Below, one piece after another: positions 1,978 through 47,870 of a stretch of 48,203 nucleotides of DNA (position 1 is its first letter; every line of letters starts with the position of its first letter). The notes under the pieces are model-generated. The model did no database searches, was not told where the DNA came from, and worked only from the letters and a program-made list of their open reading frames with translations. This DNA comes from Patescibacteria group bacterium (GTDB lineage: Bacteria; Patescibacteriota; Minisyncoccia; Phycocordibacterales; UBA9973). Made by a program: the position numbers and the translations under genes. The DNA is taken from assembly GCA_040389365.1 (NCBI GenBank), contig JAZKAB010000007.1, forward strand, positions 14,084 through 62,286. The letters run 5' to 3'.

Positions 1978-4900
1978 ATGCACGTGTCTGCACGCCTCTT
2001 TCGTAGTATACGATCTACAATTGTTAGTTTTAATAAAACGCTTTTTTTAACGGCAGGAGTATTTCTTGCTGTTCTTTTTTTGCATGTTCCAATCGTTCAT
2101 GCCGAGCTTACTCCAGAGCAAAAAGTCTTGGAGAAAAACAGGCTTGATTCAAAGTATGCTGAGTCATTTAATAATTTTCAAGCAGGCAGCGGCCTAACAA
2201 GCGGCACGGTATTAAAGGCAGGATCGGACAATGCTTCATCTGGACTTGTGTTCAAGGTGAAATTGAACGTTGACCCCTCCAAGGACCTAAAAGGAAGCGA
2301 TACAATAAAAAACCCAGCATGGAGGGCAGTTAGTTCGACTCCAAGAGGAGGCCAACTTCCCCTGCACAGCATGTTCATTCTCTTGTGCGAGAAGAACAAC
2401 GCAGCTCGTTGCTGGATTTCAGAAGTTCCCGTTAAGGTAGAGCTTGTACCTGCAGAAAAAAATACAATCTTTGTAAACTCAGAGCAGGGCAACACAATTC
2501 CTACGCAGGAAGTTGCAATTGAAACATTTAAAACTGACGACAATCAATACAATCTGTACAGCTACGACTCAATTAAGCAGGAATTTATTGGAAGCATTGC
2601 CAGTCTTAAGCTGCTAAACGGAACAACGCTTACTGCATCTCTCTGGTATCAAGGGGTGTTTGGTGCGTCGGAAGAATACACGAAGGCTGGAATAGTTACC
2701 GACAATCCTTTGCGGGTTAACTTTGGTGGAGGCCAAACAAGAACAAGCTATTTCCGAATCGGCGCTCCTATAGAAATAAAAACTCCTGCTGACGCAGCGC
2801 AGCAAGCCCAACAGGCCGCTGACTCAGCTGCAGCGCTAGCAAATGACCCCGTCAGAGCAGGTGCCGGAGATGACAATCTTCCTGTATGTATTTTTGCCCA
2901 CCCTATTAGCGGTGAGGGCAGCATCATGGGCTGTGTCGCCCAGGTTGCATACGGACTGTATAGTCTTACCGCTTGGGTTGCAGGAATCTTCGGCAATCTC
3001 TTTGATTTCTTTATTGGATACTCAGTTAGCGATACGTCATACCGTTATACGTTTGCAGTAACTGGATGGAAGCTGGTACGAGATATTTCAAACATCTTTT
3101 TCATCATCATTATGGTCTGGACGGGCTTTACAGCGGTACTGCAAGCTTCAACAGCAACCATGCGAAAGGTTGTTCCCAGCCTTATTGTTAACGCGTTCTT
3201 GATCAACTTTAGCCTCTTTGCAACAAGAGTGGTTATCGATATTTCCAATATCACCGCGCGCATGTTCTATAGCCAGATGATTGTCTGCGACAAGGTTAAT
3301 ATTGACGCCAATGGCAAGTGTCCTGCAGCACAGGCGAAACGAGGAGCGGGAGGGTATTGGCCGCTGTCTGAAAAAATTGTATCTTCATTCAACCCGCAGA
3401 TAATTTTTAATTCGAATATTCTTAAGCTGCCTAACTATGACGACAGCTCCTCAGGAAGTTCTGCCTTAAATGGCGGCTTGAAAGGCGGGAGGGTACAAAC
3501 AACATCTGACAGCGACTACGCGACATACTTTATGGTTGTGTGTATTATTGCCGCAATTATTATGGGAGGCATTACGCTCATGTTCTTCAAAGTTGCGTTT
3601 TTGTTCCTTGGCCGCGTTGTCGGTCTGTATGTCTGCATGATCTTTGCGCCATTCGCATTCTTGAGCCGAGGTATACCATTTTTTGATTCAATGAAAAAAC
3701 TTAAGTTTAAGGACTGGTGGGGAGAGCTGGTGAACTACTCGCTGCTTGCACCAATCTTCACCTTTTTCCTGTATATCATTTATGGATTTCTTTCATCGAA
3801 TTTCGTCGCGGAAATTGGCTTCGTAGACACTAAGGGTGACTTTTTCGGGACCATTCTTTCGGTGGTGATTCCAATGCTTATCATCTTCTCATTGCTTGAA
3901 ATTGCCCAGAAGACTGCTGAGAAATATGCAGGGGAGATGGGGGAGAAGGTGCAAAAATTAGGAACGCAGGCTACAGGACTCGCAATTGGAGCTGCTAGCG
4001 GGGGTGCAGCGCTACTAGGAGGAAGAGTAATTGGTGGGCTTGCTAAACGCGTTGACGAGTCTCGAGTTGGTATCGGCATTAGAAATATGGCTGCTAAAAG
4101 CGGGGTTGCGGGTTGGGCTGGAAGAAATCTGCAGAAAGGCGTAAACGCGACCAGGTCTGGATCATTTGATCTTCGACAAACTGGGGCTGGTAAAAAAGTC
4201 TTGGGCAAGCTTGGTATTGACGCTGACCAAAAGGCACTTAATACTTTTGCGGGTGTTGGACTAGGGTTAGGAACAGACCAGAGAAAGGGCGGATATGAGT
4301 CAGACGTGAAGAGAAGACAGGAACGATTGGTGGCGAATGAAAAGCTTCTTGAAGAAAAGGCCGGTGAGGAAATCAAAGCTTATAACGAAAAAGCAAAGGT
4401 TAAGTACGATAAGAAGGTAAACGAGGCTCTTGAAGCGGGAATGCTCTTAAGCCATAGTGCAGCTGATATAGCAGCAGCTAAGAGCAATGCAGACCAGACT
4501 CTTTATAATAGTTACAGAGACGAGGCAAGTAGAAATGCGACAGTACAAGCTAATATTAATGCAGTGACTAAGCCTGTTCCTGTAGCATCTGCAGATGAAT
4601 TAACAAGCACTCGACGAAAGACCTATACTGAGGGACTCAAGAAAGGCGGCGTGATTACAAGACTACAGGAAGCAGCTATAAGGCAAGGGGAGAAAGGAGG
4701 TGTGCTTAACAGCGCATTGGGAGCATCTGCAGAACTTCTAGGGGCTACCGTAGGAGCAGCGCTTGGCAGCCAGGTTCGTACAGAGGGCAGTAGAAAAGCA
4801 GGGAAAAAGCTCGAGGAGAAATCAAAGATTGATAAGGAGCTTCAAACTATTGAAGAGACGCTTGAAAAAGGATTTAAAAATCTTATATCCCTTGAAACAT

Positions 4901-5232
4901 ACGGCAAAGAATTTGATAAGTTATCGGATCCAGAAAAAGCATCTGTAGGCGCTCGACAGTCCGCAATTAATTCTGATAAGGAAATTAAGAAACAGTGGGA
5001 GCAAAGGGTTCAGGCTGTGGAAGAAAGCAAATATAACACTAAGGATTTAAAATCAAGAGCATCTGCGTTAAGAAAAACTATGATTGCTACAGGGTCACAA
5101 GCAGATGTAAATGCATACTTTGATGCAATCGCTCAAGTAGAAGCTGCAACAAAGCATGAAAAAATATGGAGAGATGTTTCAAAGTTTAGAGAAGACCAAA
5201 AGAAAAAACTAAAGGGCGAGGAGTCAAAATAA
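1978..5232 (+). CDS. large polytopic membrane protein, VirB6/TrbL-like candidate with a long Lys/Glu-rich C-terminal tail
   Basis: 1084-aa ORF. It has a signal or anchor helix, an ectodomain of about 300 aa, many hydrophobic helices across roughly aa 310-660, a Gly-rich segment, and a K/E-rich coiled-coil-like tail. It sits just upstream of the PrgI-like and VirB4 genes. The start could be GTG 1984, since TGaTACAAT at 1969-1977 abuts ATG 1978. Confidence 0.55.
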   Translation: MHVSARLFRSIRSTIVSFNKTLFLTAGVFLAVLFLHVPIVHAELTPEQKVLEKNRLDSKYAESFNNFQAGSGLTSGTVLKAGSDNASSGLVFKVKLNVDPSKDLKGSDTIKNPAWRAVSSTPRGGQLPLHSMFILLCEKNNAARCWISEVPVKVELVPAEKNTIFVNSEQGNTIPTQEVAIETFKTDDNQYNLYSYDSIKQEFIGSIASLKLLNGTTLTASLWYQGVFGASEEYTKAGIVTDNPLRVNFGGGQTRTSYFRIGAPIEIKTPADAAQQAQQAADSAAALANDPVRAGAGDDNLPVCIFAHPISGEGSIMGCVAQVAYGLYSLTAWVAGIFGNLFDFFIGYSVSDTSYRYTFAVTGWKLVRDISNIFFIIIMVWTGFTAVLQASTATMRKVVPSLIVNAFLINFSLFATRVVIDISNITARMFYSQMIVCDKVNIDANGKCPAAQAKRGAGGYWPLSEKIVSSFNPQIIFNSNILKLPNYDDSSSGSSALNGGLKGGRVQTTSDSDYATYFMVVCIIAAIIMGGITLMFFKVAFLFLGRVVGLYVCMIFAPFAFLSRGIPFFDSMKKLKFKDWWGELVNYSLLAPIFTFFLYIIYGFLSSNFVAEIGFVDTKGDFFGTILSVVIPMLIIFSLLEIAQKTAEKYAGEMGEKVQKLGTQATGLAIGAASGGAALLGGRVIGGLAKRVDESRVGIGIRNMAAKSGVAGWAGRNLQKGVNATRSGSFDLRQTGAGKKVLGKLGIDADQKALNTFAGVGLGLGTDQRKGGYESDVKRRQERLVANEKLLEEKAGEEIKAYNEKAKVKYDKKVNEALEAGMLLSHSAADIAAAKSNADQTLYNSYRDEASRNATVQANINAVTKPVPVASADELTSTRRKTYTEGLKKGGVITRLQEAAIRQGEKGGVLNSALGASAELLGATVGAALGSQVRTEGSRKAGKKLEEKSKIDKELQTIEETLEKGFKNLISLETYGKEFDKLSDPEKASVGARQSAINSDKEIKKQWEQRVQAVEESKYNTKDLKSRASALRKTMIATGSQADVNAYFDAIAQVEAATKHEKIWRDVSKFREDQKKKLKGEESK

Positions 5233-5233
5233 T

Positions 5234-5746
5234 ATGAATGATGATTTAATTAACAACCTAGAAGAGAATATTGAAGAGCTTCCGGAAGAGGCGCGGGGGT
5301 TTATCTTTGGCGATGGGTTAAAAAATGCTGAAGCGGAGATATTCAAAAATATAGATCTAGCGGAAGAAAAGCTGAAAATATCAAATATGATTAAGTTTTA
5401 TCTATTAGATATAAAATCCCTACAAGACCTCAGTGATCTTATTCTTTCCTTAACCATTAACAAGGAGAAGAAAGTTGCTGTGGCAAAAATGATAAAAGAA
5501 GATATTATTGACGAGCTTATACTGCTCAGCGAAGTTCATGAGGAGATCGATAGGGAAGCAGGTTCTGTTACAGCTACAATTTCCCCTAACAGCCTCGCAT
5601 CTCTTTCCGACCGTCTCAAACAAGCGTCAATTGCCACCCCTCTAAAGCGCGACTACAGCCTCAATACTGAAAAAACTGCAGCTCCTGCACATGAAACTCC
5701 CTCTCGCGCTATTGACCCATACCACGAATCAATAGACAATGAGTAG
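5234..5746 (+). CDS. acidic hypothetical protein (T4SS-like locus)
   Basis: 170-aa ORF starting 2 nt after the previous stop, with GAGGAG upstream. Rich in Glu/Asp/Leu/Ile, no TM segment, no recognisable motif. Confidence 0.6.
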   Translation: MNDDLINNLEENIEELPEEARGFIFGDGLKNAEAEIFKNIDLAEEKLKISNMIKFYLLDIKSLQDLSDLILSLTINKEKKVAVAKMIKEDIIDELILLSEVHEEIDREAGSVTATISPNSLASLSDRLKQASIATPLKRDYSLNTEKTAAPAHETPSRAIDPYHESIDNE

Positions 5747-5748
5747 AC

Positions 5749-6141
5749 ATGCAGTTCAAGGTTCCACAATTCATTGATATCGAAGACAAGGTCTTCGGCC
5801 CGCTTACCTTCAAGCAGTTCGCATACCTTGCTGGGGGAGCGGGTTTTGGCTATCTCGCATTCAAGCTGCTTCCGACATTTCTCGCAATTGTCATTGGCCC
5901 TGCCATTATCATCTTTGCGCTCGCGCTCGCATTCTTCAAGTACAATGAAAAGCCGTTCATTCACATGGTTGAATCGTTCATTCGCTATTATAGCCGCTCT
6001 CGCTTATACCTATGGCATAAGCAGAATCCTGCAGAACTGCCAAAGCGGTCGCCGCTCGCATCTCCTGACCGTGCTACACTTACCGAGAGCAGGCTTAAGA
6101 CCCTTTCATGGAGTCTTGACGTCATTGACCCTAAAAAATAA
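5749..6141 (+). CDS. PrgI-family (VirB3-like) small membrane protein
   Basis: The N-terminus MQFKVPQFIDIEDKVFGPLTFKQFAYL is followed by two hydrophobic helices, which is the hallmark layout of PrgI-family proteins. It lies immediately upstream of VirB4. Confidence 0.8.
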   Translation: MQFKVPQFIDIEDKVFGPLTFKQFAYLAGGAGFGYLAFKLLPTFLAIVIGPAIIIFALALAFFKYNEKPFIHMVESFIRYYSRSRLYLWHKQNPAELPKRSPLASPDRATLTESRLKTLSWSLDVIDPKK

Positions 6142-6143
6142 CT

Positions 6144-6779
6144 ATGGCTACAATCGGCACACCCGCACAACAATTCGTTCCGGTACAGGAAGTCCGCGAT
6201 GGCATCGTGGTAATGAAAGACGGCACATTATGTACCGTTGTGCTTGTTTCCTCTATCAACCTGAGCCTGAAGTCATACGACGAGCAGCGCGCAGTATTGG
6301 AGCAGTTTCAAAACTTCCTTAATACCATTGATTTCCCGGTACAGATTGTCGTACAGTCACGACGCTATGACGTGCGCCCATACCTGCTAACCCTTGAAAA
6401 CCGCCTGAAGGAGCAGACAGAACAGCTATTGCAAGTGCAGACGAGAGAATATATCCAGTTTATCCAGACCTTTACTGACCAGGTTAATGTCATGCGCAAG
6501 TCATTCTTTGTCGTTATTCCGTATATTCCGCCTGTTATCTCGCAAAAGAAAGGCATTGGGAAATTTCTTTCTTTCCTTAGTCCTAACGGCAATACGGGAG
6601 ATAGCTCGATCAGCGACTTTGAGGAAGAGCGCTCGCAGCTCGAGCAGCGCGTAAGCGTTGTTGACCAAGGATTGTCTCGAGTTGGATTGCGACTGATACA
6701 GCTCGGCACGCAAGAGGTGATTGAAGTGCTGTACAAGACATTCAACCCCGGCGAAAGCACCAGTCAGGCTAACGGATAG
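6144..6779 (+). CDS. VirB4 N-terminal-domain-like protein (separate ORF)
   Basis: The motif QQFVPVQEVRDGIVVMKDGTLCTVVLVSSINLSLKSYDEQRAVLEQFQNFLNTIDFPVQIVVQSRR resembles the N-terminal region of Gram-positive VirB4/TrsE-type ATPases. It is in the same frame as the next ORF, separated from it by two TAG codons. Confidence 0.5.
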   Translation: MATIGTPAQQFVPVQEVRDGIVVMKDGTLCTVVLVSSINLSLKSYDEQRAVLEQFQNFLNTIDFPVQIVVQSRRYDVRPYLLTLENRLKEQTEQLLQVQTREYIQFIQTFTDQVNVMRKSFFVVIPYIPPVISQKKGIGKFLSFLSPNGNTGDSSISDFEEERSQLEQRVSVVDQGLSRVGLRLIQLGTQEVIEVLYKTFNPGESTSQANG

Positions 6780-6806
6780 CAATACTAGTGTATACTATAT
6801 CCATAC

Positions 6807-8636
6807 ATGGCACTGTTTGGCTCAACCTCTAACAAATCATTAAACAGCAAAGACAGCCTTTTGCCGATTTCATCGTCAGAAGTGCACGAATGGGAGACGA
6901 TGGAGCTGGCCGACAAGATCGCGCCGTCTGCAATTGAAATCACCCCTAAGTCTATGCGTATCGGCGACAAGATCGTTCGCACCTTTTTCGTTATTTCATA
7001 CCCTCGATATTTGAGCGACAACTGGCTTACCCCGATCATCAACCTTGATAAGATTTTTGACATTGCCATATATATCAACCCGATTGAAACGTCAGAGCTC
7101 TTGAAGCATTTCCAGAAGAAGATCGCTGAAGTTGAAAGCCAGATCATGGTGCGCCAGCAGAAAGGGCTCGTGCGTGACCCGATGCTTGATACTGCCCGCG
7201 AAGACTTGGAAGAGCTGCGCAATGACCTTACCCAGGCTCAGGAAAAGATGTTTGATGTCGGCATGTATATTACCGTCTATGCCGATACTGACACTGACCT
7301 CTTTCGCGTTGAGAGCGAGATCAAGTCATTGCTTGAATCAAAGCTTATTTACATAAAGCCAACACTTTTCCAAGAAGAAGACGGGTTCAAGACCGTTGCG
7401 CCACTGGGCACTGACAAGCTGCAGGTTACGCAAAAGCTCAATTCAGAGCCTATTTCCAGCATGTTTCCCTTTGTTTCATTCGACCTTACCAGCGAAACGG
7501 GTATCTTGTATGGCGTGAACCGCCATAACTCTAGCCTTGTTATCTTTGACCGCTTTAGCCTTGAAAACTATAATTCAATTATCTTTGCCAAGTCTGGTGC
7601 CGGAAAGAGCTACGCAACAAAGCTTGAAATCATCCGTACGCTGATGTTTGATACCGATGTTATCGTTATCGACCCGGAACGGGAATACGAATACCTCGCA
7701 GAGGCAATCGGCGGGCGTTATTTTAATATCTCACTCTCTTCAGACCACCATATCAACCCCTTTGACCTGCCGATTCCTCGCGAAGACGAATCGTCTGGCG
7801 ACGTATTGCGCAGCAATATCATCAATCTCGTTGGACTGTTCCGCATTATGCTTGGAGGCCTGACTCCTGAAGAAGATTCAGTCATTGACCGCGCGATTAC
7901 CGAAACCTATTCGCTGAAAGACATTTCTGCAGATTCAGACTTCTCAACTATCGAGCCTCCGCTATTGTCGGACTTTGAAATGGTATTGTCAGGCATGGAG
8001 GGGACAGACTCAATCCTGCAGCGCTTGACCAAGTATACCCACGGCTCATGGGCAAGCTTTATCAATCAGCCAACGAATGTTGATATCAACAAGAAGTTTG
8101 TTGTCTTTTCAGTGCGGGATATGGAAGACGACCTCAAGCCTGCAGCGATGTATATCGTGACGCACTTTATCTGGAATGCAGTTCGAAAGGAGCTGAAGAA
8201 GCGACTATTGGTTGTTGACGAGGCATGGTGGATGATGAAGTCAGACGATACCGCCTCTTTCCTCTATTCTATTGCCAAAAGAGGGCGCAAATACTATCTT
8301 GGCCTTTGCACTATCACCCAAGACGTTGGAGACTTTATGAAAAGCCCATACGGCGTACCTATTATTACTAACTCTTCTATCCAGCTCTTGCTGAAGCAGT
8401 CTCCATCAACTATGGATGTCTTGCAAAAGACCTTTAACCTGACAGACGAAGAAAAATACCTGCTCTTGGAATCAGGCGTTGGGGAAGGGATCTTCTTTGC
8501 CGGACTAAAGCACGTAGCAATCAAGATCATTGCCTCATACACTGAAGACCAGATTATCACCTCTGACCCGTCACAAGTTATCTCAATCAAGAAGGCGAAG
8601 CAGGAGCTTGCCGAAGGCCAGTCACAAAACGGCTAG
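6807..8636 (+). CDS. virB4: VirB4-family type IV secretion ATPase
   Basis: Walker A FAKSGAGKSYATK and Walker B RLLVVDEAWWMM. The IAPSAIEI...IGDKIVRTFFVISYPRYLSDNWL segment is typical of VirB4/TrsE-like proteins. Confidence 0.85.
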   Translation: MALFGSTSNKSLNSKDSLLPISSSEVHEWETMELADKIAPSAIEITPKSMRIGDKIVRTFFVISYPRYLSDNWLTPIINLDKIFDIAIYINPIETSELLKHFQKKIAEVESQIMVRQQKGLVRDPMLDTAREDLEELRNDLTQAQEKMFDVGMYITVYADTDTDLFRVESEIKSLLESKLIYIKPTLFQEEDGFKTVAPLGTDKLQVTQKLNSEPISSMFPFVSFDLTSETGILYGVNRHNSSLVIFDRFSLENYNSIIFAKSGAGKSYATKLEIIRTLMFDTDVIVIDPEREYEYLAEAIGGRYFNISLSSDHHINPFDLPIPREDESSGDVLRSNIINLVGLFRIMLGGLTPEEDSVIDRAITETYSLKDISADSDFSTIEPPLLSDFEMVLSGMEGTDSILQRLTKYTHGSWASFINQPTNVDINKKFVVFSVRDMEDDLKPAAMYIVTHFIWNAVRKELKKRLLVVDEAWWMMKSDDTASFLYSIAKRGRKYYLGLCTITQDVGDFMKSPYGVPIITNSSIQLLLKQSPSTMDVLQKTFNLTDEEKYLLLESGVGEGIFFAGLKHVAIKIIASYTEDQIITSDPSQVISIKKAKQELAEGQSQNG

Positions 8637-8659: not shown

Positions 8660-9619
8660 ATGAAACGATCATTTTTCATATTAATTAGCGTGCTATTGCT
8701 GGCTATGGGCACGTATTCTGCTGCATATGCGCAGCTTGCCACTGCCGACCTGAGCATTGCGACAATTCCGCTTGAGCCGCAACCCTTGCAGACAGTGCAA
8801 GTTAGATTGCAAAGCTTCGGCTTCAGTCTTGATCAAGCCACCATTGTATGGAAATACAACGGCGCAACGATTGCTTCAGGCACCGGCAGAACGAGCATTT
8901 CAGTGACAGCGCCTGCCAATGGCAAGGTTGCGACATTGACCGCTACTGCGACCAGTACGGACTTTGACGAAAGCGTTGTCTCTTTGGTATTGCGTCCCGC
9001 AAGCATTGACGTGCTGTGGGAAGGGGCAGATAGCTATACTCCCGCCTTTTACAAGGGAAGGGCATTGCCTTCTAATAACGGCATTATTCGCATTACCGCC
9101 ATCCCTTCAATTACCGCGCCGCGAGAACTGTCATATACATGGTCAAAGAATGACTCTGTCGTGCAGGGCAGCTCTGGCTACGCCAAATCAAGCATGCTGT
9201 TTAAGAACGAAACGCTTGATACCGTCGAAAATATCTCAGTATCTGCCACGAGCGCTTCTTTTTCAGGAACAGGCAGTACCAGCATAGTGCCACGAACGCC
9301 TAATTTCATAGGGTATTTCAACAATGAAGGGTATATCGACTATGCCAACGGCTCAGCAACTGCTCTTACTACCACTGCTTCTGGAAGCATTATTCGCTTT
9401 GAGCCCTATTTCTTCTCAACGCCATACAGCATTGACCACGACTTAACGTTTGACTATAGCGACAATGACGGCAATGCTGTCGAGAAGAGCGGCATCCTTA
9501 ATGAAATTCGCTTGTCACGACCGGAAGAAGGAGGGGAGTCTCAGCTCACGCTGATAATTCACACTGTTTTATATAGTTTGCAAAACATTACCAAGAAGTT
9601 TTCAGTGAATTTCATATAG
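8660..9619 (+). CDS. secreted hypothetical protein (T4SS-like locus)
   Basis: Signal peptide MKRSFFILISVLLLAMGTYSAAYA followed by Ser/Thr-rich, beta-type sequence. No known motif. Confidence 0.6.
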   Translation: MKRSFFILISVLLLAMGTYSAAYAQLATADLSIATIPLEPQPLQTVQVRLQSFGFSLDQATIVWKYNGATIASGTGRTSISVTAPANGKVATLTATATSTDFDESVVSLVLRPASIDVLWEGADSYTPAFYKGRALPSNNGIIRITAIPSITAPRELSYTWSKNDSVVQGSSGYAKSSMLFKNETLDTVENISVSATSASFSGTGSTSIVPRTPNFIGYFNNEGYIDYANGSATALTTTASGSIIRFEPYFFSTPYSIDHDLTFDYSDNDGNAVEKSGILNEIRLSRPEEGGESQLTLIIHTVLYSLQNITKKFSVNFI

Positions 9620-9640
9620 CATTCGTGATACACTAGTTGT

Positions 9641-10144
9641 ATGAAAAAACTGTTATGGCTTAGTATAGTTTTAAGCCTACTCATTACTACTCGCACGTTT
9701 GCGATAACAGGAACACTGAAAGCAACATACGATGCATCTCTTTCTCGATTTAATGCTACGCTCTCTGGCGTAAAGGGGAGCCCAAGCAATTTTAAAATAT
9801 ATATTCTTGATAAAGAATTTCCAGGCGGAACAGAACCAAACGATGTCGTTAAGAGCAATGCTATTTTAAATGATGGCACTGTTAAAAAGCCAGATGCTGT
9901 AGGTACGATTACCTGGGCACTAAATACTTCAGCGGCTTTGAAATTCGATCATGCATACTACATTAGAGCGGTCGAGGTTGGGTATAACGGCAGAGAATCA
10001 TATGCGTCTGCTGCAGTGAAGGTAACTACCCCTGCAGCTGCTAAAGCTGCAGCTGCAGGAAAGGTAGCGTTGCAGCCTCTAGTGCTTACAGCAAAAGGCA
10101 CAGTTGTTACAGGAACATTAAGCGATGTTCCAATGAATGCTTAG
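9641..10144 (+). CDS. signal-peptide protein with Ig/FN3-like repeat modules; N-terminal portion of a frame interrupted by TAG 10142-10144
   Basis: Signal peptide MKKLLWLSIVLSLLITTRTFA. The module motif YYIRAVE...VKVTT recurs downstream of the TAG in the same frame. Confidence 0.6.
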   Translation: MKKLLWLSIVLSLLITTRTFAITGTLKATYDASLSRFNATLSGVKGSPSNFKIYILDKEFPGGTEPNDVVKSNAILNDGTVKKPDAVGTITWALNTSAALKFDHAYYIRAVEVGYNGRESYASAAVKVTTPAAAKAAAAGKVALQPLVLTAKGTVVTGTLSDVPMNA

Positions 10145-10582
10145 TACAAGCTTATTTCTCAAAAAACAGCATTTAGCAGCAGTCAATATGCCGGCAGCGA
10201 CAGCGCACTGAGCGCAGGAGTAGTCTCTCCTACAGCAGGACCTGTAAACTTAGCGAGCGGTACTGCCTCAGTCGGATCAGTCTCTTTTAACGAATCAAAT
10301 TATCTGCAGAACACAAAATACTATATACGCGCCATAGAGATTCCTGCAGATATAACGATTAAGCCATTTTATATTAGCGACACTGTTACAGTAACAACGG
10401 CGGAGGATACTATTGCCCTTGTTCCGCTAACAACCAAGAAGGATGGCGACAGTATTATTGTTTCTGGAAAAATTGATACGTCAAAACTTACCTCAACATT
10501 TATACCGGAGGACTATACGGTAACGCTTAGCGCATCAAAGACGCCTCCGAAGACTGGGACTAATGATCTTGCGACAGTAGAT

Positions 10583-11719
10583 GTGGGACCGTTACCAAGC
10601 GCGAAGACGGAAAAAGGAGATGTTCCCGGCATTAATGCAGATGGCACATACTACTGGAAACTCTCAAGCCTTTCTCCAAGTACTGTGTACTATTATCAGC
10701 AATCAGCTACGGTAAAAGGCAACAAGGTGCCAGTGAAGGGGAGCGTTGCAAACTTTAACAGCAATGTCGGAACAACAATCGTACCGGGCAGTGCGGAAGA
10801 AAAGGCAGACTTGAACAAGCGAAGCTATACGCTGCTTTCTGGCTTTCCAAACTTTAGCGTCTTGCCTGACCCTGACTTGTGCGCGCAGCAGCGCGCAGCA
10901 GGGGAGAATCCGCGGTTCTGCGACATGAATGACGTTATCAACTACTTTATGAAGCTGCTTATCGGCCTCTGTGCCGTATCGCTTGTGTTCAGAATCATGT
11001 ATGAAGGATTCGTATACATGACGAGCGACATGCCATTCAAAGTTGCGAGCGCCAAGTCATCTCTGTATGCAGCCATACTGGGTCTGCTGTTGGCACTTAC
11101 CTCATATATTATTTTAAATACCATTAATCCAAAGCTTGTTGATGGAACAGTGAGCGTAGATCAGTTGGGCATCGGCGTTGAAATTGTAGGGGATGGAAGT
11201 ACATCATTTAACCTTGGTACAAAGACAAAAGGGCTTCCAACCCCAGTATACTGTCCCGGATCAGGAGGAAGAGCACAGTTATCAAAGATTGCCATGAGCT
11301 TTCAAAACAACGTTGTATACAATCAAACGCTAAGAAATAGCCTGCAGCCAAATGGAAAAGTTGCGCTAGACTGCTCATCATATGTTGCACAGGTATTAAA
11401 TTGCGCCGGATATACTATACCTGGCGTATCTACCAGCAATACAAATACTGCGTCTATATTTGGAGGTTCAGGTGCTGAGAAAATAAGCACTATCTCTTCT
11501 GCTAATGGCGTTGTTACCGTGAATAACAAGGTGCTGCAAGTAGGTGACCTATTGGGGTGGACAGGATCAAAAGGGCATGTGGTTATGTATATTGGAGGAG
11601 GTCAAATAATTGAAGTACATGGCCCAAAAGGCTCAATTACTAATGCGAAAGTCTGGCCAAGTATAGACTGGTACCAAAAGAATTATGGATTTAAGTCTGT
11701 GTATCGAATTCCAAATTAA
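10583..11719 (+). CDS. T4SS-pilin-like two-helix domain fused to an NlpC/P60-type cell-wall hydrolase; the true 5' end is unresolved
   Basis: Pilin-like segment: YTLLSGFP...LLIGLCAVSLVFRIMYEGFVYMTSDMPFKVASAKSSLYAAILGLLLALTSYIILNTINPKLV. Hydrolase motifs: LDCSSYV (Cys), GHVVMYIG and EVHG (His). The frame is open back to 10145, and the GTG at 10583 is only the first possible start. Confidence 0.65.
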   Translation: MGPLPSAKTEKGDVPGINADGTYYWKLSSLSPSTVYYYQQSATVKGNKVPVKGSVANFNSNVGTTIVPGSAEEKADLNKRSYTLLSGFPNFSVLPDPDLCAQQRAAGENPRFCDMNDVINYFMKLLIGLCAVSLVFRIMYEGFVYMTSDMPFKVASAKSSLYAAILGLLLALTSYIILNTINPKLVDGTVSVDQLGIGVEIVGDGSTSFNLGTKTKGLPTPVYCPGSGGRAQLSKIAMSFQNNVVYNQTLRNSLQPNGKVALDCSSYVAQVLNCAGYTIPGVSTSNTNTASIFGGSGAEKISTISSANGVVTVNNKVLQVGDLLGWTGSKGHVVMYIGGGQIIEVHGPKGSITNAKVWPSIDWYQKNYGFKSVYRIPN

Positions 11720-11748
11720 AACATAGTGTTTTATAGTACAATACATAC

Positions 11749-12990
11749 ATGCGACGCATTCTCATTATAATTTTCGTACTTATTCTCGTCGGAACAGGGG
11801 TATGGTATTTCTATATTCGCCCTATGCAAAATGGCGCAGCAACCGTACCTTCACTATTGCAGCCCTTCTTCCCAAGCGTGACAACAAACCCAAACGGGTC
11901 ATTTGGAGAAGAAGATACTTCTCTTAACGGCCCGACGCCGGTGGCGACAGCGGCTGTGCTTAAGCAATTAACTGCTCGTCCTATTGCAGGCTTTACAATC
12001 TTCAGCACCTCAAAAACTATTTCTATTCCTGCCGCAGATCCAAAAGAGAAGCCGACAATAACGACGGTTGTTGATCATTTCGTACGGTATGTGTCTCGCG
12101 CGAACGGCTATGTGTATGAGATAAAGAATGCTGAAATTCCATTGCAGATCAGCAATATTTTTATTCCAAACGTGTACGAGGCGTATTTTGCTGATAGCAA
12201 CAATACTGCACTATTGCGCTTTCTGCGCGCAAACAGCCAGACCATTGCTACATATAGCATTCCTATCCCTCCCTTAAACATTGATGGTACCCGCACGCAA
12301 AAATCGGGCGTGTATCTTCCTGACAATATTTCTGCCCTGGCAGTATCTGCAGACCAGAAGCAGGTTGCCCGCATTACCCATGACAAGAATGGCGCGATTG
12401 TAACAACGTCTAACAGTGCAGGCACCGGCAGCAGGGTAGTGGCGCGATCGCCATTCCAGCAATGGCTCGTGCAGTGGAATACGAAGAATATCTTTTTGCA
12501 AACCAAGGCAGCAGCGACAGCTGACGGTTTCCTATACAGCATAGATGCTGCTTCAGCGCGATTAAGGCGCGTAACGGGCATGATAAAAGGAATGACCGCA
12601 TCAGTCAGCCCTCTTGGCACATATGTATTGTATTCAGAAAGCACTGCTACAGGCTTCACTACGACGCTTTTTAATACTAAGACCAATGCAACGAATCAAA
12701 TCAACCTTTCGATACTGCCTGAAAAATGCACATGGCTTAAGAATGAAGACCTTATCTGCGCAGGAAACAGCAGCGTTGCAGACGCTGTATATCCAGACAA
12801 CTGGTATGCCGGCATTACGCACTTTTCTGACAAGCTCTATCATATCAATGCAGCAACAAATACCTACGAGCTTGTATATAACGGCGAAAGCCAGTCATTT
12901 GACATGACTGGCTTGATGGCTGATGAAGATCAGAAGCTTGTATTCTTTATTGATAAGACCACAGGGTTGCTGTGGTCTTACAAGTACTAG
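11749..12990 (+). CDS. N-terminally anchored extracytoplasmic hypothetical protein (last gene of the T4SS-like locus)
   Basis: TM helix ILIIIFVLILVGTGVWYFYI followed by about 380 aa of beta-rich sequence. TACAAT lies 6 nt upstream of the ATG. Confidence 0.6.
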   Translation: MRRILIIIFVLILVGTGVWYFYIRPMQNGAATVPSLLQPFFPSVTTNPNGSFGEEDTSLNGPTPVATAAVLKQLTARPIAGFTIFSTSKTISIPAADPKEKPTITTVVDHFVRYVSRANGYVYEIKNAEIPLQISNIFIPNVYEAYFADSNNTALLRFLRANSQTIATYSIPIPPLNIDGTRTQKSGVYLPDNISALAVSADQKQVARITHDKNGAIVTTSNSAGTGSRVVARSPFQQWLVQWNTKNIFLQTKAAATADGFLYSIDAASARLRRVTGMIKGMTASVSPLGTYVLYSESTATGFTTTLFNTKTNATNQINLSILPEKCTWLKNEDLICAGNSSVADAVYPDNWYAGITHFSDKLYHINAATNTYELVYNGESQSFDMTGLMADEDQKLVFFIDKTTGLLWSYKY

Positions 12991-39088: not shown

Positions 39089-39239
39089 ATATAGGTATAC
39101 TTAAGGTTCAATTATACCTATATTTGACTTAATAACTATATAGGAACTTATTCGCTCAGAAAAGGTACGAAGAAATGTCTATTATTACGGCATAGCTAAG
39201 ATCAAAGAATTGTTTTAACACATTCAAGAAAAATTGTTG

Positions 39240-39312
39240 TGCGCCCAGAGGGATTCGAACCCGCGACCGTCTCCTTAAAAGGGAGCTGCTCTACCGACTG
39301 AGCTATGGGCGC
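39240..39312 (-). tRNA. tRNA-Lys (anticodon TTT)
   Basis: Manual cloverleaf: 7-bp acceptor GCGCCCA/TGGGCGC, D-arm GCTCAGTCGGTAGAGC, anticodon loop CTTTTAA, T-loop TTCGAAT. No encoded CCA. Confidence 0.85.
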
Positions 39313-43308: not shown

Positions 43309-43411
43309 GTATACAATTATAGCTTAAATCAACAAAAACTCTACATATGAGTTAGGGTCATATAGGACTTATTAAAAAAGATTCATGAGGCATTTGTATG
43401 AGCCTAAGTTG

Positions 43412-43483
43412 TGCTCCCGGTAGGAATCGAACCTACATCATAACTTCCGCAAAGTTACGTCCTATCCATTGAACGACGGAAGC
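43412..43483 (-). tRNA. tRNA-Arg (anticodon GCG)
   Basis: Manual cloverleaf: acceptor GCTTCCG/CGGGAGC, anticodon stem TAACT/AGTTA with loop TTGCGGA, T-arm GTAGGTTCGATTCCTAC. Confidence 0.85.
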
Positions 43484-47691: not shown

Positions 47692-47763
47692 GCCCTTGTA
47701 GTTCAATGGATAGAACAGGAGACTTCTAAGCTCTTGATGTAGGTTCGATTCCTACCGAGGGCA
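47692..47763 (+). tRNA. tRNA-Arg (anticodon TCT)
   Basis: Acceptor GCCCTTG/CGAGGGC, anticodon loop CTTCTAA, T-arm GTAGGTTCGATTCCTAC. Confidence 0.9.
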
Positions 47764-47791
47764 CACCAAGTAGAAATCCTTCTAAAACGAT

Positions 47792-47864
47792 GCGCGATTA
47801 GCTCAGTTGGTAGAGCGGCGCTTTTACACAGCGAAGGTCGGGGGTTCAAGTCCCTCATCGCGCA
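47792..47864 (+). tRNA. tRNA-Val (anticodon TAC)
   Basis: Acceptor GCGCGAT/ATCGCGC, D-arm GCTCAGTTGGTAGAGC, anticodon loop TTTACAC, T-arm GGGGGTTCAAGTCCCTC. Confidence 0.9.
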
Positions 47865-47870
47865 CAAACC

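Follow-up and report, generated by a model that had tools for sequence, protein, structure and literature searches.

In Patescibacteria the T4SS adjoins dnaA, and VirB2-like pilins are found near virB4 (PMC12102498). Genes of the T4SS cluster are reported to be essential for the epibiotic growth of Ca. Southlakia epibionticum (cited in PMC12102498). The DNA analysed here, a stretch of 48,203 nucleotides from a member of the Patescibacteria that we refer to as the window, holds a PrgI/TraC-like/VirB4 cluster close to yidC, rnpA and dnaA. As is the case for the VirB2-like (PF18895) pilins of Patescibacteria/CPR, the gene described in this study lies two genes 3' of virB4, and its product has a signal peptide and a conserved hydrophobic hairpin of two helices that weakly matches T4SS_pilin. 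The gene also occurs as tandem paralogues in some genomes, matching the pilin arrays of PMC12102498. Compared with classical VirB2, the protein is far larger, with two to three FN3-like modules N-terminal to the hairpin and a peptidoglycan hydrolase C-terminal to it. A further likeness, in domain content and gene setting, is to the VirB1-type hydrolases of monoderm T4SS (PrgK of pCF10 and TraG of pIP501, named in PMC12102498): the protein has a cell-wall hydrolase domain (NlpC/P60, CHAP-like papain fold) and its gene lies inside a T4SS cluster. The architecture differs from theirs in its FN3 modules and pilin-like hairpin.

In the window, the reading frame of this gene is interrupted by a TAG codon. 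An in-frame TAG in a conserved gene recalls stop-codon reassignment or suppression (UAG read as sense, pyrrolysine), a likeness that is only superficial. A one-base stop in an intact and selected gene, absent from a second assembly, is what ordinary nonsense polymorphisms, nascent pseudogenes and metagenome consensus errors have in common; the case carries no feature that distinguishes it from an ordinary nonsense or consensus-error case. Here we argue that the locus is very probably a single gene under the standard code. Where the window has TAG, an independent assembly of this population has AAG, so that the stop would be either a nonsense allele that is not fixed or an error of the consensus, and not a recoding event.

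Results

One internal stop in a 692-codon frame

Translation of positions 9500–11800 revealed one internal stop on the plus strand between 9641 and 11719, the TAG at 10142–10144, before the terminal TAA at 11717–11719. This bears out the original prediction that a single TAG is the sole interruption of a 692-codon frame. Read in the frame of the ATG at 9641, the residues around the stop are ...GTLSDVPMNA(stop)YKLISQKTAF.... The 524 codons 3' of the TAG are free of stops, an event with a chance of about 2e-12 (0.95^524 at ~5% stops per codon; a rough estimate), and translation showed no second lesion among them.

The ORF listing, in which each ORF begins at the first ATG, GTG or TTG after a stop, divides this frame into ORFs 9641..10144 (167 aa, ATG) and 10583..11719 (378 aa, GTG). 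Because a listed ORF opens at the first of these codons, here the GTG at 10583, the 438 nt between 10145 and 10582 contain no in-frame ATG, GTG or TTG, as had been stated from the sequence before.

Domain architecture of the encoded protein

We used an AlphaFold2 model of the 690-aa uninterrupted orthologue P0001 (mean pLDDT 81.7) and transferred its coordinates to the window (Table 1). The model consists of a signal peptide, three beta-sandwiches (residues 24–131, 142–244, and 256–370), a hairpin (426–492; pLDDT ~85–88), a disordered linker and an alpha/beta hydrolase domain (540–685). Its top PDB matches in Foldseek were FnIII arrays, namely those of insulin/cytokine receptors, contactin and titin (E ~1e-6 to 1e-5). 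The stop column corresponds to T164 of P0001, where the third strand of module 2 begins, confirming that the TAG lies mid-domain. The related claim that the repeats continue across the TAG held in substance, since the P0001 model has three modules; it did not hold for modules 2 and 3 at the level of sequence. BLASTP detected a weak similarity between modules 1 and 2 (E=0.001 over 47 aa) and no significant one between modules 2 and 3, so that what backs the third FN3-like repeat is its predicted fold.

Pfam searches of the part after the TAG identified PF00877 at 34.3 bits (gathering cut-off 23). T4SS_pilin (PF18895) matched the window protein with E=0.003 and 18 bits, below its cut-off of 26.6; the homologues P0027, P0052, and P0063 bear a precomputed PF18895 hit. 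In the homologue alignment, the helical hairpin, including its ILNTINPKLV motif, is the best-conserved part of the protein. The 'LDCSS' and 'GHV' motifs are kept among the NlpC-type homologues, and we take their Cys and His to be the catalytic residues of the NlpC/P60 family. The product is predicted to be a secreted, membrane-anchored T4SS surface protein in which a signal peptide is followed by three FN3-like modules, the VirB2-like hairpin and, at the C-terminus, the NlpC/P60 hydrolase.

Table 1. Features of the T4SS locus and of the interrupted gene. Positions are those of the window; X1 is the watershed metagenome described in the text.
Feature	Position	Strand	Evidence or remark
PrgI/VirB3-like gene	5749-6141	+	Pfam
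TraC-like gene	6144-6779	+	Pfam
VirB4 ATPase gene (TraG P-loop)	6807-8636	+	Pfam
Two genes without a Pfam match	8660-9619 and 11749-12990		
Whole gene, 692 codons with one TAG	9641..11719	+	Single frame; P0001 homology; syntenic single genes in L001 and L069
Sec-type signal peptide MKKLLWLSIVLSLLITTRTFA	9641..9703	+	Read from the sequence; homologue N-termini conserved as MKKxLWL...FA
FN3-like module 1	9713..10033	+	Mapped from P0001 AF2 model, residues 24-131; Foldseek tandem FnIII
FN3-like module 2, TAG after its first two strands	10079..10396	+	P0001 residues 142-244; pLDDT ~92 around the site
In-frame TAG	10142..10144	+	T at 10142 here, A (AAG, Lys) in X1 Logan contig; sequence and contig comparison
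FN3-like module 3	10430..10759	+	P0001 residues 256-370
GTG, first in-frame start after the TAG, inside FN3 module 3	10583..10585	+	ORF listing
Two long hydrophobic helices, hairpin, VirB2/T4SS_pilin-like	10925..11125	+	Weak Pfam T4SS_pilin; P0001 helices 426-458, 462-492
C-terminal NlpC/P60 peptidoglycan hydrolase domain	11267..11704	+	Pfam PF00877; PDB 8er5 NlpC/P60 E=0.005
yidC, yidD, rnpA	After the 11749-12990 gene	-	
dnaA	14532-15935		
Gene starts with TACAAT/TATACT-like box	1978, 6807, 8660, 9641, 11749, 13725(-), 34345, 37671		

Orthologues and homologues

The order and lengths of the T4SS core genes are the same in L001 (a JGI metagenome) and L069 (GCA_040384045.1). At the syntenic position both have one uninterrupted gene, of 690 aa in L001 and 671 aa in L069, and its neighbours equal the lengths seen in the window (211, 609, 319, and 413 aa). 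Comparison with orthologues, proposed earlier as a check, therefore gave an uninterrupted single gene in L001 and L069 and no split orthologue among the loci examined. Contigs of related genomes are labelled Candidatus Nomurabacteria, Paceibacterota or Saccharibacteria.

The best protein match to the read-through query was P0001, with 60% identity over 100% of the query, and all 65 protein-database matches are long (381–928 aa). A signal peptide opens each of the 13 homologues that were aligned and inspected; in about 60 Patescibacteria genome loci, the ILNTINPK motif, which is invariant, lies in an ORF with a signal-peptide-like N-terminus. The stop column is variable among homologues, which carry T, K, S, D, Q, V and others (Lys in six), and none of the homologues examined has a stop there.

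Tandem pairs of paralogues of the FN3-pilin-hydrolase gene were observed in eight Patescibacteria loci (L007, L008, L010, L018, L020, L023, L030, and L032), an arrangement reminiscent of VirB2 arrays (PMC12102498).

Selection and variability of the gene

For an estimate of selection, window positions 9641–11719 were compared with L069 positions 3886–5901, together with the flanks. The flanking genes are 91–99% identical in protein and ~89% in DNA. Within the gene, positions 9897–10361 gave no blastn match to L069, and 10361–11195 matched with 76% DNA identity; the protein sequence of the helical hairpin is almost the same. The dN values were 0.2–0.29 in the gene versus 0.005–0.05 in its neighbours. 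The dN/dS ratio was 0.15 over the 167 upstream codons and 0.19 in the downstream part, which shows that both halves are under purifying selection. With these ratios and no second lesion, any inactivation would therefore have to be extremely recent.

The C-terminal hydrolase has been exchanged between these close relatives, being NlpC/P60 in the window and VanY/M15 in L069. Among the homologues P0001–P0059, the C-terminal domains are NlpC/P60, VanY/M15, SLT (PF01464 and PF13406), YkuD (PF03734) or M15_4 (PF13539). The number of FN3 modules also differs among homologues, and module 1 is missing from P0003, P0005, P0008, P0012, P0014, and P0016. The gene is a hypervariable cassette within an otherwise conserved T4SS cluster.

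The base at position 10142 in a second assembly

The watershed metagenome X1 is the only public run that contains most of the window (0.97–0.99 of sampled words) and the only one whose contigs (Logan) cover the gene; the comparison was made with these contigs. The X1 contigs match the window over 1–48203, except for 7610–7909 and one isolated difference at 10142. At this position, a T>A difference turns TAG into AAG (Lys). It is found on the single covering contig, at a word depth of 9.9, and this contig shows no other difference from the window in 1,837 nt. The original prediction had allowed that the TAG might not be real and the locus simply one long gene; at the contig level, this is how the X1 contig reads.

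The 61-mer with the T allele was found in no indexed run, and three sampled 31-mers spanning the T were absent throughout the index. With an N at the variable base, the site had no match in metagenome_contigs or genome_contigs, and the window is in neither collection. Neither the 167-aa product nor the 319-aa neighbour had an exact match among recorded proteins, and the 413-aa neighbour is on record solely in Logan SRR26324622. Three further runs of the study that produced X1 (X2, X3, and X4) leave the site uncovered; X2 and X4 hold the organism at ~2.5x. Contigs lose rare variants. The X1 contigs establish that the A allele is present, not that T is absent, and T in X1 is compatible with them. 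The assembly of the window may also stem from a different sample, or from a co-assembly with T as its majority base.

Several other properties of the X1 contigs were noted. The variable base lies 40 nt from the end of the contig with the A allele, and the next contig overlaps this one by 18 nt (10164–10181). Short overlaps (23–28 nt) also occur at other X1 junctions and breaks are frequent; this end is therefore probably not specific to the site. Another contig follows the window over 3700–7609 and then shows 47 differences, mostly at third codon positions, up to its own end (7610–7909, in virB4). The divergence indicates either a second related strain in X1, with ~85% identity in this segment, or a chimeric contig end. 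Spikes in depth (60–90x) and spurious contig joints coincide with tRNA genes at 39239–39312, 43411–43483, and 47692–47865; the spikes probably come from k-mers common to other organisms in the metagenome.

TAG usage and start signals in the window

A greedy set of non-overlapping ORFs ends in TAA 28 times, in TAG 14 times (this TAG included) and in TGA five times, so that TAG accounts for 14 of the 47 terminators (~30%). As had been claimed, TAG is a common genuine stop in this DNA. Thirteen other inferred genes are closed by it, among them the four that immediately precede the interrupted gene and the one that follows it. The TAG-ended genes of 211, 609, 319, and 413 aa have the lengths of their orthologues, and one of 170 aa has a counterpart of 175 aa in L001. 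This use of TAG as a normal terminator supports the argument, made at the outset, against genome-wide reassignment. No other conserved gene in the window has an in-frame TAG; the remaining same-frame pairs of ORFs separated by one stop either lie in non-coding frames or share sequence with a tRNA or with a gene on the opposite strand. The window encodes five tRNAs (Lys-UUU, Arg-GCG, Ser-UGA, Arg-UCU, and Val-UAC), and a tRNA-CUA is not among them. Folding of 10130–10260 gave no stable RNA structure after the stop (z = +1.31 versus shuffled sequence), and promoter- and terminator-like hits in 9400–11900 did not exceed the shuffled expectation.

Two forms of recoding were considered and rejected. 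Reassignment of TAG is at odds with its share of the terminators (14/47), with the lack of a second interrupted conserved gene in the window and with the lack of a conserved TAG in the homologues. Programmed readthrough is at odds with the sense residues that homologues carry at the stop column and with the lack of RNA structure downstream.

The GTG at 10583 is preceded neither by a Shine-Dalgarno (SD) sequence nor by the TACAAT-like box typical of real starts in the window, and none of the homologues has a start at its position. In this sequence context, the GTG is not credible as a gene start.

Many genes in the window are without an SD sequence and have a TACAAT/TATACT-like box 0–8 nt before the ATG instead. 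The closeness of these boxes to the ATG suggests that the organism has leaderless or near-leaderless mRNAs.

Discussion

Three explanations had been put forward for the interruption: a recent nonsense mutation, population heterogeneity or an assembly error, and readthrough or reinitiation. The AAG of the X1 contig and the intact orthologues favour the first two. The third found no backing, given that TAG is a normal stop here and that we detected no other interrupted conserved gene and no tRNA-CUA in the window, no RNA structure after the stop, and, between the two parts, no start codon and no promoter or terminator signal above chance. Under the reading we prefer, of one gene with a non-fixed nonsense allele or a consensus error, a single A-to-T change would turn the AAG (Lys) into the TAG at 10142–10144. 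On the T allele, translation would be expected to halt at this codon and to leave a 167-aa pre-protein in which the signal peptide and module 1 are followed by two strands of module 2. Neither the hydrolase nor the pilin-like part would then be synthesised, and T would be a null allele, not a regulated split.

Whether the T is a real allele or a consensus error can be weighed only roughly. Short-read assemblers seldom put an unsupported base into a consensus. Because unsupported consensus bases are rare, and because two assemblers picking different alleles suggests balanced alleles or different input samples, we lean slightly towards a real allele, with a consensus error only a little less probable.

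The lesion could instead be fixed as a very recent pseudogene in the strain of the window, the AAG in X1 coming from a co-occurring strain, and a T4SS surface protein would then have been lost. The TAG is present in the window and disrupts the frame relative to the orthologues, X1 does show signs of a related second strain in the 47 mostly third-position differences at 7610–7909, and the gene evolves faster than the rest of the cluster, so that variants are to be expected in it. However, apart from this base the contig with the A does not differ from the window in 1,837 nt, and no other isolated SNP occurs in 48 kb; both haplotypes therefore belong to one population. Moreover, the X1 contig reads AAG, so that the lesion is not fixed at the contig level, no second lesion is present, and the downstream dN/dS is well below 1. 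The T4SS genes reported to be essential in Ca. Southlakia epibionticum (cited in PMC12102498) also speak against fixation of a null allele. We consider a fixed pseudogene unlikely.

Decoding of the TAG, whether by programmed readthrough, a suppressor tRNA or a pyrrolysine-type system, would yield the full 692-aa protein from the TAG allele and would account for a long intact downstream frame without a start codon. Such decoding is highly improbable in view of the 14 TAGs among 47 terminators at orthologue-matched ends, the absence of in-frame TAGs from the other conserved genes of the window and of CUA from its five tRNAs, the homologues that have no stop at the column, the fold z of +1.31 and the plain AAG of the sister haplotype. 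More improbable again is a reading as two true genes, in which a secreted FN3 protein of 167 aa precedes a second protein that starts by reinitiation or at GTG 10583. The ORF listing does give two ORFs, but no in-frame start exists for 438 nt after the stop, the GTG lies inside FN3 module 3 without an SD or -10-like box, and promoter and terminator hits are no commoner than in shuffled sequence. The downstream product would also lack a signal peptide, and no orthologue is split in this way.

The T allele may be real at appreciable frequency, cause loss of function and be kept as on/off heterogeneity of a hypervariable, surface-exposed protein of the epibiont T4SS, which we regard as distinctly unlikely. 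If it were true, loss of the exposed protein might, for example, let a cell evade recognition by a host defence or a phage. Still less likely is that low-level readthrough of the TAG tunes the dosage of the protein.

For annotation, positions 9641–11719 should be described as one gene, with 10142 noted as T/A, and neither as two ORFs nor as evidence of recoding. Neither the biology of the genetic code nor that of readthrough is affected by the finding. The gene is more interesting than its stop, as a diversifying, modular surface component of the conserved T4SS of Patescibacteria, a system that, in the single lineage in which this was tested, is reported to be essential for growth as an epibiont (PMC12102498).
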